A DNA stretch of 64,000 bases, taken from assembly GCA_963765675.1 (NCBI GenBank), contig CAVXXK010000001.1:1600001-1664000 (forward strand), written 5' to 3'. The translations under genes and the position numbers were made by a program. This DNA comes from an uncultured delta proteobacterium. GTDB taxonomy: Bacteria > Desulfobacterota > Binatia > Binatales > Binataceae. Positions within the stretch are counted from its first letter, which is position 1. Each line of letters starts with the position of its first letter. Shown in pieces: positions 5,063-23,599 of the stretch. The notes beneath the pieces were generated by a model, which saw only the letters and a list, made by a program, of their open reading frames with translations, was not told where the DNA came from and ran no database searches.

Positions 5063-6682
5063 ATGGCGTCTGGCCCGGAACAATCTCACCAGAATTCTCC
5101 GCAAAGTAGCGACCTGTGGCCGCATGAGGAAGCCGCGCGCGTAGCCGACCGCGTCCGCGCCTATCCGCCAGGGCGTCCGGTCATTTTCCAGAGCGGATTC
5201 GGACCCTCGGGCCTGCCGCATCTGGGCACGATGTGCGAAGTGTTGCGCCCCTCTTACGTGCGACACGCACTTGCGATGCGCGAGCCGAATCGCCCGTCGC
5301 GCCTGATCGTTTTCATCGACGACATGGACGGCTTGCGCAAGGTTCCCGAGAACGTGCCCAATCGCGAGCTGATGCAGTCGCATCTGGGCGAGCCTGTCTC
5401 GCGGATTCCGGATCCTTTCGGATGCTGCCAGAGCTTCGCCGATCACATGCTCGGACTTCTACGCGAATTTCTCGCTCCGGTCGAAGTCGATTACGAGTTG
5501 GTGCGCTCCTCCGAGATGTATAGCGGCGGCAGCTTCGATGAGGGACTGAAGATTATTCTCGCGAAGCATCGCGAGATAATCGCGATCGTCACGCCGACGC
5601 TACGTCCGGAAAATCGCGCGGGATGGTCTCCGATCATGCCGCTATGCCCGAATTGCGGGCAGATCGTCGAGCGTTCGGTGACCGCGTATCATCCCGAGCG
5701 CAACACGATCGAGTTCATCTGCGAGCGCAGCGCCAAGGCGAAGCAGGGATGCGGCTTCACCGGCGAGCAGAGCGTGCTCGGTGGCCTCGCTAAAGCGCAG
5801 TGGAAGGTCGATTGGGCGCTCAGGTGGTTCACGCTCAAGGTCGATTACGAGCTTTACGGAAAGGACCTGACCCCCTCGGCGCAACTGTCGGCGCCGATCG
5901 TTCGTATCATGGGCGGCAATCCGCCGCTCGGCTTTCCATTCGAGATGTTCCTCGACGAGCAGGGGCACAAGGTCTCGAAATCGGTCGGCCGTGGGGTCAG
6001 CGTCGATCAATGGCAGCGCTACGCGCCGGTGGAAGTGCTGAAATTTTTTCTGCTGCAGAATCCTCGGCGCGCGCGGAAGCTTTTCCTCGAATCGATTCCA
6101 CAATACGTCGACGACTATCTCGAGGCACTGCGCGAATACGCCGCCGCACCCAATTCGGAATCACGTGCCGACTCGCCGCTCGAGTTCGTGCTGCAGAAGG
6201 AGAGCCCGCGCCGCTTCGACTCGCAGCTTTCGTTCGGGATGATGATGAACCTGGTCGGCGCGCTCGGCAGCTCGGACCGCGACTTTATCTGGAACTACCT
6301 GAAAGGCTATGACGCGGCGATAGCAGGCGATCCTGAAACCGCCGCGATGGGCCGCGCGCTGATGGATTGCGCGCTCAACTTCTATCGCGACTTTGTCGAG
6401 CCCGGCAAAACGCCTTACGCTCCCAGTGTCGCCGAAACCGGCCAGCTACAGAGCCTCGCAGATTTCCTGCGCGCGAACCCCGGCGCCGCCGCCGAGGAGA
6501 TCGAGAAAATCATCTATGATCTTGGCCGCGCAAATTACGAGAAGCCCGGCAAAATTTTTCCGCTGATGTATCGCGCGATCCTGGGTCAGGAGCGCGGCCC
6601 GCGATTGGGCGCCTTCATCCGCCTGGCCACTCCCGCACGAATAATCCAGCTCCTGGAATCCGCAATCACCCGCGCCACCTGA
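5063..6682 (+). CDS. lysS: Class I lysyl-tRNA synthetase
   Basis: GPSGLPHLG (HIGH-like), DDMDGLRKVP, KAQWKVDW, KVSKS (KMSKS-like) and ERGPRLG motifs. Confidence 0.93.
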   Translation: MASGPEQSHQNSPQSSDLWPHEEAARVADRVRAYPPGRPVIFQSGFGPSGLPHLGTMCEVLRPSYVRHALAMREPNRPSRLIVFIDDMDGLRKVPENVPNRELMQSHLGEPVSRIPDPFGCCQSFADHMLGLLREFLAPVEVDYELVRSSEMYSGGSFDEGLKIILAKHREIIAIVTPTLRPENRAGWSPIMPLCPNCGQIVERSVTAYHPERNTIEFICERSAKAKQGCGFTGEQSVLGGLAKAQWKVDWALRWFTLKVDYELYGKDLTPSAQLSAPIVRIMGGNPPLGFPFEMFLDEQGHKVSKSVGRGVSVDQWQRYAPVEVLKFFLLQNPRRARKLFLESIPQYVDDYLEALREYAAAPNSESRADSPLEFVLQKESPRRFDSQLSFGMMMNLVGALGSSDRDFIWNYLKGYDAAIAGDPETAAMGRALMDCALNFYRDFVEPGKTPYAPSVAETGQLQSLADFLRANPGAAAEEIEKIIYDLGRANYEKPGKIFPLMYRAILGQERGPRLGAFIRLATPARIIQLLESAITRAT

Positions 6683-6707
6683 TCTCTTCGATCCGAGCCG
6701 CCGGATG

Positions 6708-7241
6708 GTCCCTCTCCCAACAAGATTGGGAGAGGGTGGCGCGCGTTGCGCGCGACGGGTGAGGGACCTACAGCAAGGATTCTTTGATCCTTTCGAGCGC
6801 TGCCGTCATGTCGCGCAGCAAGTCGGGGTTCCAAAAGCGGATCACGCGGAAGCCCTGAGCTTCCAGATAGCGCGTGCGTTCGGAATCGTGTTCGGTCTGT
6901 TCCAGATGCTGGCCGCCGTCCAGTTCGACGATCAGTCTGCGCTCAAGACAGCAGAAATCGGCAATGAACGGTCCGATCGGAACCTGCCGGCGAAACTTGA
7001 AGCCGGCACAGCGGCGGCCGCGGAGCTTGTTCCAAAGCGCCTGTTCGGCGTCGGTTTGGGTGCGGCGCAGAGATCTCGCGCGGTCGCGAGTCAGTTCCGG
7101 AGGTCGGTTCATACAAGCGGAGATCATCGCAGCGAGAGCGTCCGGATTTCAATGCTGTAGGTCCCTCACCCGCGCGTCACGGCGATTGCCAAAAAAGAGC
7201 AATCGCCGCGCCGCCCTCTCCCAAACGATAGGGAGAGGGAC
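6708..7241. mobile_element. Putative DUF559 element, intact copy
   Basis: Outer 11-bp IR GTCCCTCTCCC/GGGAGAGGGAC. Inner perfect 20-bp IR at 6756-6775 and 7153-7172. Each end also forms its own hairpin. The element encloses only the DUF559 gene. Confidence 0.7.
6768..7112 (-). CDS. DUF559 / Vsr-like endonuclease
   Basis: RARSLRR.QTDAE..LW, FRRQVPIGPFIADF, IVELDGGQH and GFRVIRFWN motifs. Confidence 0.92.
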   Translation of the reverse strand: MNRPPELTRDRARSLRRTQTDAEQALWNKLRGRRCAGFKFRRQVPIGPFIADFCCLERRLIVELDGGQHLEQTEHDSERTRYLEAQGFRVIRFWNPDLLRDMTAALERIKESLL

Positions 7242-7375
7242 AATCACGGAGAACACGCGCGCAGCTTGGCAACCGTTCCAATTATTTCCGCTCTTCTGTG
7301 TTTCCTCTTACCCTGCTAGACAGATAGCTCGGAACCTACACATTAACCCTGCAACAACCGAGCGAGAAATCAACA

Positions 7376-7480
7376 ATGGCAAGCGAACGGCAACGAAGTA
7401 TCAAGCGGCGGCGCAAGCGCAAAGAGACACGACTCAAGGCCAAGATTCGCGAGTCGCGCAAGAAAAAGAAGAAGCGTTAG
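7376..7480 (+). CDS. 34-aa highly basic small protein
   Basis: MASERQRSIKRRRKRKETRLKAKIRESRKKKKKR, with 20 of 34 residues K or R. Below the ORF-track cutoff. Confidence 0.6.
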   Translation: MASERQRSIKRRRKRKETRLKAKIRESRKKKKKR

Positions 7481-7554
7481 CGCCGCGATCTTGCATTCGC
7501 ACCCGCGGCGCCGAGCCGAGGTGCGCGCGGAATTTCTGCACAGGAGTTTTTACG

Positions 7555-16657: not shown

Positions 16658-16920
16658 GTCCCTCTCCCAAAAGATTGGGAGAGGGTGGCGCGCGCTGCGC
16701 GCGTCGGGTGAGGGACCGACAGCGAGACTCTTTTTCCAATTCGACCGCGGCGCGAGCAATCCAAAGCGAATCTTCGAACGTTCTGTGCCGAGGGGTTCGC
16801 GTGATCGTCGGGCACCAAGCGCAGATTCTGATTCTGTAGGTCCCTCACCCGCGCGTCACGGCGATTGCTAAAAAGAGCAATCGCCGCGCCGCTTGCCCTC
16901 TCCCAATCTGGGAGAGGGAC
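16658..16920. mobile_element. Non-autonomous, internally deleted copy of the DUF559 element
   Basis: Both ends are near-identical to those of 6708-7241. The interior is ~120 bp with decayed similarity to the DUF559 3' end. Confidence 0.72.
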
Positions 16921-23150: not shown

Positions 23151-23599
23151 TCCCTCTCCCTGACCAGGGAGAGGGATCAAGGGAGAGGGTACATTGGCGT
23201 CAGCAGGCAAGCGCAAACGAGCAGTACCACTCGTGCATCAACGCGCCCGCCAATTGCGCCGCGAGCAGACCGACGCGGAATCGAATCTACGGAACCGAAT
23301 CCGCGCAAAGCGCCTGAACGGCTTCCATTTCCGGCGCCAATTTCCGATAGGCAATTTCATCGCCGACTTCTGCTGTCATGAATCGCGCCTCGTGATCGAG
23401 CTCGATGGCGGCCAGCATGTGGATCGTGCCTCATACGATGCCTGGCGTACGAGCCTGATCGCCGAGCGCGGTTATCGAGTGATTCGATTCTGGGATACAT
23501 GAGGTGCTTATGAATATGGAAGGCGTAATCGAGGCTATACTCACTGCGCTGGAAGAGACCTCTCCCTTCGCTCTCTCCTTGGACAAGGAGAGGGTATAA
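23151..23599. mobile_element. Second DUF559 element (divergent subfamily)
   Basis: Left end TCCCTCTCCCTG-ac-CAGGGAGAGGGA plus AAGGGAGAGGGT. Right end ACCTCTCCCTT plus a CTCTCCTTG-ga-CAAGGAGAG hairpin. Confidence 0.6.
23194..23599 (+). pseudogene. DUF559 endonuclease with a +1 frameshift near 23499
   Basis: ELDGGQH..GYRVIRFWD is followed by a stop at 23502. The typical tail EVLMNMEGVIEAIL continues in the next frame to TAA 23599. Confidence 0.8.

Follow-up and report, generated by a model that had tools for sequence, protein, structure and literature searches.

A DUF559 nuclease gene bracketed by inverted triplex-motif repeats next to lysS in a Binataceae genome: a candidate nuclease-repeat partnership

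The stretch of DNA analyzed here (64,000 nucleotides, referred to as the window) belongs to the genome of a Candidatus Binataceae bacterium (G000; other G numbers denote the compared genomes). Downstream of lysS, which ends at position 6682 (class I; Pfam tRNA-synt_1f, E 3.6e-108), lies a 534-bp cassette whose only Pfam-supported ORF is a DUF559 gene on the minus strand (Table 1). The initial annotation had described this unit as palindrome-ended, with a DUF559 nuclease as its only gene, no transposase and no obvious target-site duplication. The repeat, ORF and fold analyses recovered all of the listed features, and delimit a discrete cassette bounded by inverted repeats; the ORF and Pfam search found no transposase ORF in it, and no target-site duplication was found at the copies with inspected flanks.

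Table 1. Features of the lysS-site cassette and of two related loci in the window
Feature	Positions	Strand	Evidence
Whole cassette: two inverted triplex-motif ends around a single DUF559 gene	6708..7241		repeat and Pfam searches
Left outer hairpin: GT, CCCTCTCCC (6710-6718), 9-nt loop, GGGAGAGGG (6728-6736)	6708..6736	+	repeat search and fold
Left inner GC hairpin, CGCGCG stem	6738..6756	+	fold
Left third block GGGTGAGGG, adjoining the gene, within the inner inverted repeat arm 6756-6775	6757..6765	+	repeat search
DUF559 nuclease gene, 119 aa	6768..7127	-	Pfam PF04480, E 2.9e-41
Promoter-like site TTGAAA-18-GATGAT, within the cassette	7123..7152	-	single weak consensus match
Right-hand inner inverted repeat arm; contains third block CCCTCACCC (7163-7171)	7153..7172	+	repeat search
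Right inner hairpin GGCGATTGC ... GCAATCGCC	7174..7214	+	repeat search and fold
Right outer hairpin: CCCTCTCCC (7214-7222), 8-nt loop, GGGAGAGGG (7231-7239), AC	7214..7241	+	repeat search and fold
Two-ended copy without a gene, same subfamily, 263 bp	16658..16920		repeat comparison
Second DUF559 cassette, gene truncated (Pfam positions 4-90)	23152..23594	+	Pfam and motif search

The arms of the left outer hairpin (6710-6720 and 6726-6736, 11 nt) and of the right outer hairpin (7214-7222 and 7231-7239, 9 nt) are 100% complementary. An outer inverted repeat of 15 nt (6704-6718/7231-7245, 93% complementary) has as its core the 11 nt reported initially, and a fully complementary inner inverted repeat of 20 nt (6756-6775/7153-7172) includes the stop codon of the gene (6768-6770). 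Folded as single-stranded DNA, the two cassette ends reach -23.6 kcal/mol (z -4.3) and -26.1 kcal/mol (z -5.2), and none of 200 shuffles folds as well. The TTGAAA stretch of the promoter-like site is invariant in all five orthologous copies. Transcription terminators were considered as a role for the hairpins and rejected, as the scan found no T-run after them and no terminator-like site at either end.

Judged by its sequence, each end is probably a variant of the BoxC/PIT/TMECO intrastrand-triplex repeat, to which a GC hairpin has been added. In both ends the hairpin lies outward and the third block toward the gene. The block GGGTGAGGG fits the TMECO block GGGNGAGGG, and under general pairing rules it could presumably form purine-motif triplets with GGGAGAGGG at 9/9 positions, as expected of a predicted triplex. 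The TMECO consensus consists of the three blocks CCCTCNCCC, GGGNGAGGG and GGGNGAGGG, with a first loop of N3-6 and a second loop of N3 (Holder et al., 2015; PMC4666352). The three cassette blocks match this consensus and are mirrored at the right end, and the repeats share with TMECO, as described in that text, an intergenic and dispersed location, conserved stems and variable loops; most hairpins of this genome also have a 3-nt first loop. The cassette ends differ from the published form in their first loops (9 and 8 nt, longer than the N3-6 of the definition), in their second loops (20 nt at 6737-6756 or 42 nt at 7172-7213, each with its own GC hairpin, vs. N3), and in their arrangement as inverted pairs around a gene. 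The left inner hairpin is a variable module at the position of TMECO loop 2, where other cassettes carry different hairpins, and the right inner hairpin module is also present in most of the approximately 100 solo units of the genome.

The hairpins are not private to the lysS-site cassette. Genome-wide we found 91 perfect CCCTCTCCC-N3-14-GGGAGAGGG hairpins and 114 units consisting of a third block, an inner hairpin and an outer hairpin. Full, gene-less and solo forms, which the initial annotation had proposed to count, all exist: two-ended copies of the subfamily number at least eight, and the genome holds at least seven gene-less two-ended copies and more than 100 solo units. The 114 units include only two identical pairs, and there is thus no sign of a recent burst. 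The short copies align to the full cassette solely at ~6708-6800 and ~7141-7241, and their interiors (~100 nt) show no recognizable derivation from the gene; that they are internal deletions is suggested by the 10-25 nt of the gene 3' end that they keep, and by an in-place case (cassette 3 in G009). The locus of the gene-less copy in the window is occupied in G009 and holds a solo hairpin in G005, and compared with G009 its ends are 93-94% identical and its interior 59%. The second cassette of the window has canonical flanking triplex motifs without inner hairpins. Repeat-to-repeat spacing is equal in the three intact cassettes (397-399 bp, by two counts), and the other two align to the lysS-site cassette at 62-64% DNA identity. 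A further repeat pair with 384-bp spacing (C1:889371-889820) was examined as a sixth cassette and discarded, having no DUF559 remnant (best tblastn E 2.6).

With the strict motif, hairpins lie within 200 bp on both sides of three of the genome's five DUF559 genes, compared to a random-interval rate of 0.00024 (binomial P 1.4e-10), and with a general pyrimidine/purine-hairpin detector all five are bracketed (random rate 0.0038). The same holds in a sample of the class, where 25/30 loci are bracketed on both sides and 29/30 on at least one (24/29 and 28/29 without the G107 locus), and hairpins number 4.66 per kb close to the gene vs. 0.35 per kb farther off. Across many phyla, both sides are bracketed at 62 of 72 loci and at least one side at 70, with densities of 4.45 and 0.33 per kb respectively; these 72 are the loci with enough flank from 80 that were found with a single query protein and represent the query's own subfamily (48-92% identity). 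The enrichment of hairpins near DUF559 genes, which the initial annotation had suggested testing, is borne out, hairpins being ~13 times denser beside these genes than at least 450 bp away. Where a third block is present on one side of the hairpin only, it lies toward the gene in 57 cases and away from it in 10.

Gene and repeat also co-occur among genomes. Among 121 genomes of the class, DUF559 is present in 22/26 with at least 20 hairpins vs. 13/95 with fewer (Fisher odds ratio 35, P 1.7e-11; without G107, 21/25 vs. 13/95, P 4.9e-11), a statistic that in both forms ignores kinship. The repeat-rich genomes without DUF559 are G043, G067, G104, and G138, and G114 has a fragment only; thirteen repeat-poor genomes contain DUF559, some of them bearing other motif types. 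In E. coli K-12, where 23 TMECO sites are known, ycjD (DUF559) has a TMECO-type motif on its 3' side only, ~160-210 bp away, and its 5' hairpin is of another kind. On the protein tree of DUF559, repeat subtype shows weak clustering (20 changes, where 300 shuffles gave 24.3 on average and never fewer than 21), with kinship as a confounder and one subtype dominating (76/101 rows). The DUF559 gene and the repeat are physically and phyletically linked across phyla.

Such a link could arise passively, if triplex repeats provoke recombination and trap DNA between their pairs, the activity of DUF559 being unrelated to them. Genetic variability is indeed raised around TMECO sites according to the text of Holder et al. 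(2015; PMC4666352), and the lysS 3' end beside the cassette exists in two diverged forms that are 70-73% identical. Further, the same two ends surround ~950 bp of other cargo in G001:C349, an AT-richer ORF with a weak PEGA match, which indicates that the ends are not exclusive to DUF559. Passive trapping leaves unexplained, however, why DUF559 is the cargo at those 62 of the 72 cross-phylum loci, why the third blocks have a fixed orientation, and why DUF559 is present in repeat-rich genomes; in G000, where inward-facing repeat pairs lie less than 600 bp apart, no recognizable coding cargo other than DUF559 is present between them. We therefore regard passive cargo as rather unlikely.

The lysS-site cassette is common to four genomes of the genus (G000 and three congeners), and the unit is 83-87% identical in G009, G005, G002:C130, and G003:C38. 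Its dS (0.31-0.37) resembles the values for the genes beside it (ECH, 0.41-0.50), so its inheritance looks vertical, and the cassette looks resident at this site rather than jumping. The gene has a dN/dS of 0.07-0.14 against its orthologs and is under purifying selection. Identity to the three orthologs reaches 97-99% at the left end and 91% in the coding sequence, and the spacers adjoining the cassette are 31-46% and 67-75% identical; the repeat ends are far more constant than the surrounding DNA, also in gene-less copies. In the lysS tree (one gene, with star-like dS), G000, G001, and G003 group at 89/92, and G009 and G005 at 100/100.

Orthologous loci form a decay series, from the full cassette through a gene-deleted doublet (G009, cassette 3) and a solo motif (G001) to a remnant (G005). 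One locus has two types of solo hairpin, of which one kept the left loop and the other the right loop, indicating independent collapses. Four sequencing runs were compared as contigs only, the best of them containing 0.22 of the sampled words. In the environmental run X3, a near-identical contig of 279 nt joins position 6709 to 7214, and so is missing exactly 504 bp and retains a single hairpin; the joint shares 11 nt (CCCTCTCCCAA), with one mismatch in each flank. All changes with a readable direction, taken from the surviving hairpin loop, are deletions, and no new insertion could be polarized at the compared loci. Cassettes decay in place via deletion between repeated hairpin arms, which yields gene-less doublets, solo hairpins and remnants, and the lysS locus is polymorphic, with the environmental deletion and with solo or empty sites in relatives. 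The initial annotation had named as outcomes counting against it an element fixed without empty sites, and hairpins no more common near DUF559 genes than elsewhere; neither was found.

It had also read the unit as a mobile element. In its strong form, this would be an autonomous element that moves itself, with DUF559 as a transposase-like enzyme acting on the structured ends. The terminal inverted structure around a single gene, the two-ended copies of the subfamily in G000, and the clean, hairpin-free empty sites that G005 and G003 show at a single short-copy locus are consistent with such an element, as is a second locus in G003:C38 and G002:C103 that holds the same cassette at 87% identity. 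However, the flank which that copy shares with the lysS-site copies measures 9 nt on the left and ~29 nt on the right, which looks like recombination rather than end-precise transposition, and the vertical dS at lysS and the lack of target-site duplications, identical copies or a polarized insertion also argue against self-movement. The same absence of a transposase and of target-site duplications at the inspected copies sets the cassette apart from classical IS elements and MITEs. PD-(D/E)xK nucleases cut DNA, and we know of none that carries out strand transfer on its own, which counts further against this reading. DUF559 is also rare on plasmids (47/72,556 records, mostly chromids or chromosome-size records) and in phages (2/50,697 records). 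What survives of the mobile-element reading is the discrete cassette with its full, solo and empty copies; the vertical dS and a record of readable changes made up of deletions do not fit it, and we consider autonomous movement unlikely.

The protein matches PF04480 with 140.2 bits (cut-off 20.6) over profile positions 4-108 of 109, and has a further Pfam match, MTES_1575, slightly below its own cut-off. Residues D57, E68, D70, and H74 are of catalytic type, intact, and invariant in 16/16 aligned sequences; by analogy to the fold family, they probably have a catalytic role. The closest solved structure by sequence is PDB 3hrl_A (E 2.2e-26, residues 24-114), named "Endonuclease-Like Protein" of Neisseria gonorrhoeae, an entry name that gives no more, and we know of no published function for it. 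The search of PADLOC defence-system families returned none.

DUF559 and Vsr belong to the same fold family (PMC3424549), and DUF559 might accordingly act as a Vsr-like repair enzyme that fixes T:G mismatches arising from cytosine methylation, a role proposed for Caulobacter VsrA, the repeats being incidental. VsrA (CCNA_02930), which has a DUF559 domain and is the only DUF559 protein known to have a phenotype, causes DNA damage in vivo and shows its phenotype in methyltransferase-mutant cells (Matthey et al., 2026; PMC12907096); the available text ties it to cytosine methylation and does not discuss repeats. This in vivo damage shows that active nucleases can occur among DUF559 proteins. The cassette protein shares the fold family with VsrA and matches the Vsr profile weakly (E 0.0047), but its TIGR00632 score of 17.2 bits is far from the cut-off of 97.85. 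Moreover, the only PF03852 (Vsr) match of the genome, at C1:957732, already lies ~1 kb from the only C5 methyltransferase, none of the five DUF559 loci adjoins a C5 methyltransferase, and mismatch repair leaves the repeat bracket unexplained, all of which makes it very unlikely as the role of this gene. Least credible is an invertible switch, in which the perfect 20-bp inner inverted repeats would drive programmed inversion of the gene segment: DUF559 is enriched among the targets predicted for programmed inversion (odds ratio 14.3; Milman et al., 2023; PMC9881135), but the gene points the same way with respect to the unlike ends in G009, G005, G002:C130, and G003:C38, as it does at the one end of the partial G002:C103 copy, the four runs show no strand-changing joints (a weak test, on contigs only), and the promoter-like site is enclosed by the inverted repeats, so that inversion would not switch expression.

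Instead, the cassette has its closest parallels in systems where a small enzyme lives with its own repeats. Like the cassette, NTS-ssnA-NTS places repeats on both sides of a small single-domain nuclease gene, has hairpin repeats with added oriented sequence and hundreds of solo repeats per genome, and shows co-occurrence of gene and repeat across genomes; in the available text, 42% of homologs are flanked on both sides, and the gene is present in 81% of repeat-rich genomes (Chenal et al., 2025; PMC11893778). The two differ in enzyme, Ssn being of the GIY-YIG superfamily and the cassette protein of the PD-(D/E)xK type (Vsr fold, Pfam DUF559 only), and in the sequence and structure of the repeat. 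They also differ in that Ssn activity on its repeat is proven, while that of DUF559 is inferred. With REPIN-RAYT, as described by Bertels and Rainey, the cassette shares inverted repeat doublets as the unit, many dispersed doublets, and a repeat-flanked enzyme gene that is low in copy number, vertically inherited and long-lasting. RAYT, however, is an HUH (Y1) tyrosine transposase acting on REP hairpins, different in fold and chemistry from the cassette enzyme, and here a genome has several diverged cassettes (five in G000).

A nuclease within a selfish insertion is also found among homing endonucleases. One such enzyme is that of PDB entry 3r3p, which we take to be I-Bth0305I. It is a Vsr-fold homing endonuclease of group I introns, of the same clade (PMC3424549), and the homing cycle of invasion, fixation and decay resembles the cassette series. 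Unlike these endonucleases, the cassette has no intron or intein, and it has for its site not a unique conserved gene but a dispersed repeat. Occupied, solo and empty alleles are seen at cassette loci, and the lysS tree does not separate gain from loss.

For the repeats themselves, Holder et al. (2015; PMC4666352) tied no mobility genes to TMECO in a text that does not contain the word "endonuclease", and cited earlier work in which the repeats had no promoter or terminator activity. Our literature searches found no paper that connects DUF559 with these repeats. The initial description of the element as undescribed therefore applies to the DUF559 link, but not to the repeat, which is known as BoxC/PIT/TMECO (PMC4666352), or to the architecture, which has analogs in REP-RAYT and NTS-ssnA-NTS.

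On balance, we think it somewhat probable that the DUF559 cassette is a nuclease-repeat partnership similar to REPIN-RAYT and NTS-Ssn, and not a cut-and-paste transposon. By analogy to those systems, the DUF559 nuclease would act on the repeat: it may recognize the folded or slipped repeat and nick at or beside it, recombinational repair between repeat copies would then spread and homogenize the repeats, and occasional repair may copy the cassette into another repeat-bearing site. More tentatively, as a serious possibility that we do not yet hold to be probable, DUF559 proteins may be the missing partner enzymes of BoxC/PIT/triplex repeats in general. They would then represent a nuclease-repeat symbiosis of independent origin, the third beside HUH/REP and GIY-YIG/NTS, in which a Vsr-fold nickase reads folded or slipped three-block DNA, and recombinational repair spreads and homogenizes the repeats and copies the nuclease's own cassette. 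In that case the small DNA nucleases specific for structure would also gain a new family.

Catalogues of BoxC/PIT/triplex-motif repeats go back to the 1990s, and the repeats occur in many bacterial genomes; DUF559 is, to our knowledge, an orphan nuclease family that is very widespread and has a solved structure but no known substrate. The available text on the repeats assigns them no origin, function or mobility gene (PMC4666352). With the cross-phylum link between DUF559 and the repeats, the question of the substrate and that of the repeat partner both become testable by ordinary experiments, and the lysS locus contributes a clear series of decay stages as well as a deletion, at the population level, whose junction is defined. 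If the partnership is real, a third enzyme fold would join the small nucleases that live alongside structured repeats of their own.

Downstream of the DUF559 cassette (window 6708-7241), which lies 3' of lysS, are a small basic ORF and then an enoyl-CoA hydratase gene (ECH). Both cassette ends share one three-part anatomy, mirror-imaged, consisting of an outer hairpin, an inner hairpin and a "third block" next to the gene, and a perfect 20-nt inverted repeat contains both third blocks and also spans the DUF559 stop codon. Repeat search and folding bore out every detail of the initial annotation's description of this interval (gene, inverted repeats, stop codon and end hairpins). The solved structure nearest by sequence to the 119-aa protein is 3hrl (E 2.2e-26). 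The protein has all of the acidic and histidine residues (D57, E68, D70, and H74) that do not vary across 16 aligned members of the family. The stretch directly downstream of the cassette (7242-7481) is highly conserved across the genus, empty sites included, and leads into a very basic 34-aa ORF (7377-7481) with no Pfam match.

Features of the cassette and related loci (window positions unless a contig is named)
Feature	Position	Strand	Remarks
class I lysS	5063-6682		ends 25 nt before cassette
outer hairpins	6708-6736 and 7214-7241		GT-CCCTCTCCC-loop-GGGAGAGGG
inner GC-rich hairpins	6738-6756 and 7174-7214		unlike at the two ends
left third block	6757-6765		GGGTGAGGG
DUF559 gene	6768-7127	minus	119 aa; PF04480 E 2.9e-41; sole supported ORF in 6708-7241
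right third block	7163-7171		CCCTCACCC
gene-less two-ended copy	16658-16920		within window
second window cassette	23152-23594		gene 23236-23496 truncated, Pfam positions 4-90, 112-aa open frame
C5 cytosine methyltransferase and canonical vsr	G000:C1:955625-957953		ordinary pair, about 1 kb apart

The three blocks match the consensus of TMECO, the E. coli intrastrand-triplex motif formerly called BoxC or PIT, as printed by Holder et al. (2015; PMC4666352): CCCTCNCCC N3-6 GGGNGAGGG N3 GGGNGAGGG. However, the cassette has a 20- or 42-nt hairpin where TMECO has a 3-nt second loop. Given the fit of the blocks and the replacement of this loop by a hairpin, the ends are a variant form within a repeat class that is known but unexplained. 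Inner hairpins are swapped among positions between the three intact cassettes of the window's genome (G000), leaving the three blocks as the constant part of the ends.

The genome-wide count that the initial annotation had proposed found full, gene-less and solo copies in the 4.5-Mb G000 assembly: 91 perfect hairpins of the cassette type, 114 full units (third block, inner hairpin and outer hairpin; median nearest-neighbor identity 96%, only 2 identical pairs), and at least seven gene-less two-ended copies of the cassette's subfamily (233-274 bp). Five DUF559 loci are present, three with intact genes, one truncated and one with a stop codon. Pyrimidine/purine hairpins lie within 250 bp on both sides of all five (random-interval rate 0.0038), and with the strict motif both-side bracketing is found in 3/5 vs. 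a random rate of 0.00024. The second window cassette has canonical flanking triplex motifs without inner hairpins. Repeat-to-repeat spacing is the same in the three intact cassettes (397-399 bp, varying with counting method), and the other two share just 62-64% DNA identity with the one at lysS. G000 also has 20 copies of a hairpin subfamily whose arms are CCCTTCCC, and it contains no DUF559 gene of that type; the CCTCCCCC subfamily (10 copies) accompanies the broken cassette at C3:61096-61537.

Among 121 sampled genomes of the window's class, 35 carried DUF559; two-sided bracketing was found at 25 of the 30 best loci and brackets on one side or more at 29 (24/29 and 28/29, respectively, without the locus from one unpublished genome, G107). 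A many-phyla set of 80 loci, including Proteobacteria, Chloroflexota, Planctomycetota, Nitrospirota, Deinococcota, and Elusimicrobia, gave 62/72 and 70/72 among those with enough flank. Hairpin enrichment near DUF559 genes, which had also been proposed for testing, was found in both sets, with densities of 4.66 per kb near the gene vs. 0.35 farther off in the class sample and 4.45 vs. 0.33 in the many-phyla set. When a hairpin has a third block on one side only, the block is toward the gene in 57 cases and away from it in 10. DUF559 also occurs in 22/26 genomes with at least 20 hairpins vs. 13/95 below that number (odds ratio 35, P 1.7e-11; without G107, 21/25 repeat-rich genomes, P 4.9e-11; kinship ignored in both). 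Four repeat-rich genomes lack a detected DUF559 gene and one more has a fragment only. Absences given by the PF04480 search may reflect limited sensitivity, as its control missed E. coli despite the DUF559 annotation of ycjD in K-12. This ycjD has a TMECO-type motif on its 3' side only, between ycjD and fabI. Besides the motif, a ~25-nt stretch in that interval (compared stretch L144, 6196-6465) duplicates the ycjD 3' end and may be what is left of a second DUF559 copy.

The lysS-site cassette is also present in the congeners G009, G005, and G002 (contig C130), with 83-86% identity across the whole 2.8-kb query. Measured against these copies, its dS (0.31-0.37) is close to that of the ECH flank (0.41-0.50) and of lysS (0.32-1.09; alignments of 207-539 codons), and the dN/dS of its DUF559 gene is 0.07-0.14; such flank-like dS and low dN/dS are the mark of a gene that is resident and functional. 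Identity to the orthologues is 97-99% in the left end and 91% in the coding sequence, and 31-46% and 67-75% in the adjoining spacers. The gene-less copy in the window and its G009 orthologue are 93-94% identical at the ends and only 59% in the interior; thus the ends stay constant even without the gene, either from selection or from conversion. Over the last 383 nt of lysS (6300-6682), G000 shares only 70-73% identity with G009, G005, and G002 (L002, L003, L004), beside a cassette 91-99% identical and an ECH start 89-97% identical; this gene end adjoining the cassette occurs in two diverged forms.

Comparison of the lysS 3' region in relatives, likewise proposed earlier, revealed a solo hairpin bearing the left hairpin's loop in G003:C90, a degenerate relic in G002:C193, and a mere 6-nt trace in the genome G001. 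In a 279-nt contig from the soil sequencing run X3 (one contig, depth 2.8), 6709 is joined to 7214 with 504 bp absent and 1 mismatch per flank, and the joint lies inside 11 nt, CCCTCTCCCAA, common to both hairpins. The G003:C90 hairpin loop (L006, about 2590-2830) holds an unrelated ~190-bp element with its own inverted ends and an apparent 4-nt flanking duplication, and the lysS 3' region of three other genomes (G004, G006, G010; L025, L027, L024) carries another repeat with inverted ends, rich in CACAGATT-like words; the unpublished G010 entered the analysis for this region alone. At the locus of cassette 3, a further DUF559 cassette of G000, both ends remain without the gene in G009, a solo motif in G001, and a remnant in G005; the cassette 2 locus of G009 carries a truncated solo hairpin. 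The solo hairpins of G001 and G009 differ at one locus of a gene-less two-ended copy, one having the left loop and the other the right, indicating independent collapses, and at another such locus the sites in G005 and G003 are cleanly empty. Together with the X3 joint, these solo, gene-lost, remnant, and empty alleles show repeated deletion between direct repeats made by the hairpin arms.

On balance, we favor a reading by analogy, in which the DUF559 protein and the repeat probably form a cognate nuclease-repeat partnership, because repeat-flanked enzyme genes, dispersed repeats, vertical inheritance, and constant ends occur together here as in REPIN-RAYT and NTS-ssnA-NTS. The enzyme genes, one or a few in number, each lie between inverted repeat copies and are vertically inherited under purifying selection, alongside many dispersed solo and gene-less two-ended copies with constant ends. 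This pattern recurs in the descriptions consulted of REPIN-RAYT and of NTS-ssnA-NTS (PMC11893778); in the second system, cleavage of single-stranded DNA next to the hairpin repeat by the small GIY-YIG nuclease has been demonstrated. Recognition in the favored reading could, speculatively, involve a mismatch: Vsr-type enzymes read one, and if the third block paired with the hairpin arm instead, a single T-T or A-A mismatch would result.

It is unlikely that the gene is instead a passive passenger at a hot spot of recombination, an explanation favored by an element in G001:C349 (L032, 1501-2625), where the same two end modules surround about 950 bp that are richer in AT and include a 186-aa ORF. 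As this cargo differs, the cassette ends can bracket non-DUF559 cargo. The ORF has a lipoprotein-like N-terminus by eye and a weak PEGA match (E 0.0045) under the cut-off.

An autonomous transposon proper is less likely still. Of the mobile element proposed initially, what stands are the empty or solo sites in relatives and a relocated copy; on the other side, dS is like that of the flanks, and a cassette gain did not emerge from locus comparison with the lysS tree. In this single-gene tree G000 groups with G001 and G003 (support 89/92), which is compatible either with an ancestral cassette lost several times or with repeated gains at a single site. The relocated cassette, 87% identical, is found in G003:C38 and G002:C103 at a second locus, which in G000 is occupied by different genes. 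Compared with window 6699-7270, the G003:C38 copy (L022) shares flank with lysS-site copies over 9 nt on the left (with the G009 copy) and about 29 nt on the right (with the window). Judging from these alignments, one relocation did happen, and the shared flanking nucleotides make it look like recombination, not end-precise transposition.

More doubtful again is a mismatch-repair enzyme with incidental repeats, which is weakened by the canonical Vsr already beside the sole C5 methyltransferase of G000. An inversion switch is very improbable: predicted inversion targets are enriched for DUF559 in the results consulted from Milman (2023; PMC9881135), but gene orientation is identical in four copies spanning both ends, and a partial fifth copy is concordant at its single end.

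The element had also been called a candidate undescribed one. The repeat class and the DUF559 family are known already, and two systems of this kind, built on different enzyme folds, are in print. What stands is that no paper in the openly accessible article texts searched links DUF559 to triplex repeats, nor do those mentioning DUF559 deal with repeats. Holder et al. (2015; PMC4666352) state that they did not find any mobility genes close to the motifs, and Kosinski (2005) and Steczkiewicz (2012) handle the DUF559 family solely as a predicted nuclease. In the proposed nuclease-repeat partnership, the Vsr-fold nuclease would recognize a folded or slipped three-block structure and nick at it; recombinational repair among repeat copies would then spread and homogenize the repeats, and the same repair may occasionally copy the cassette.
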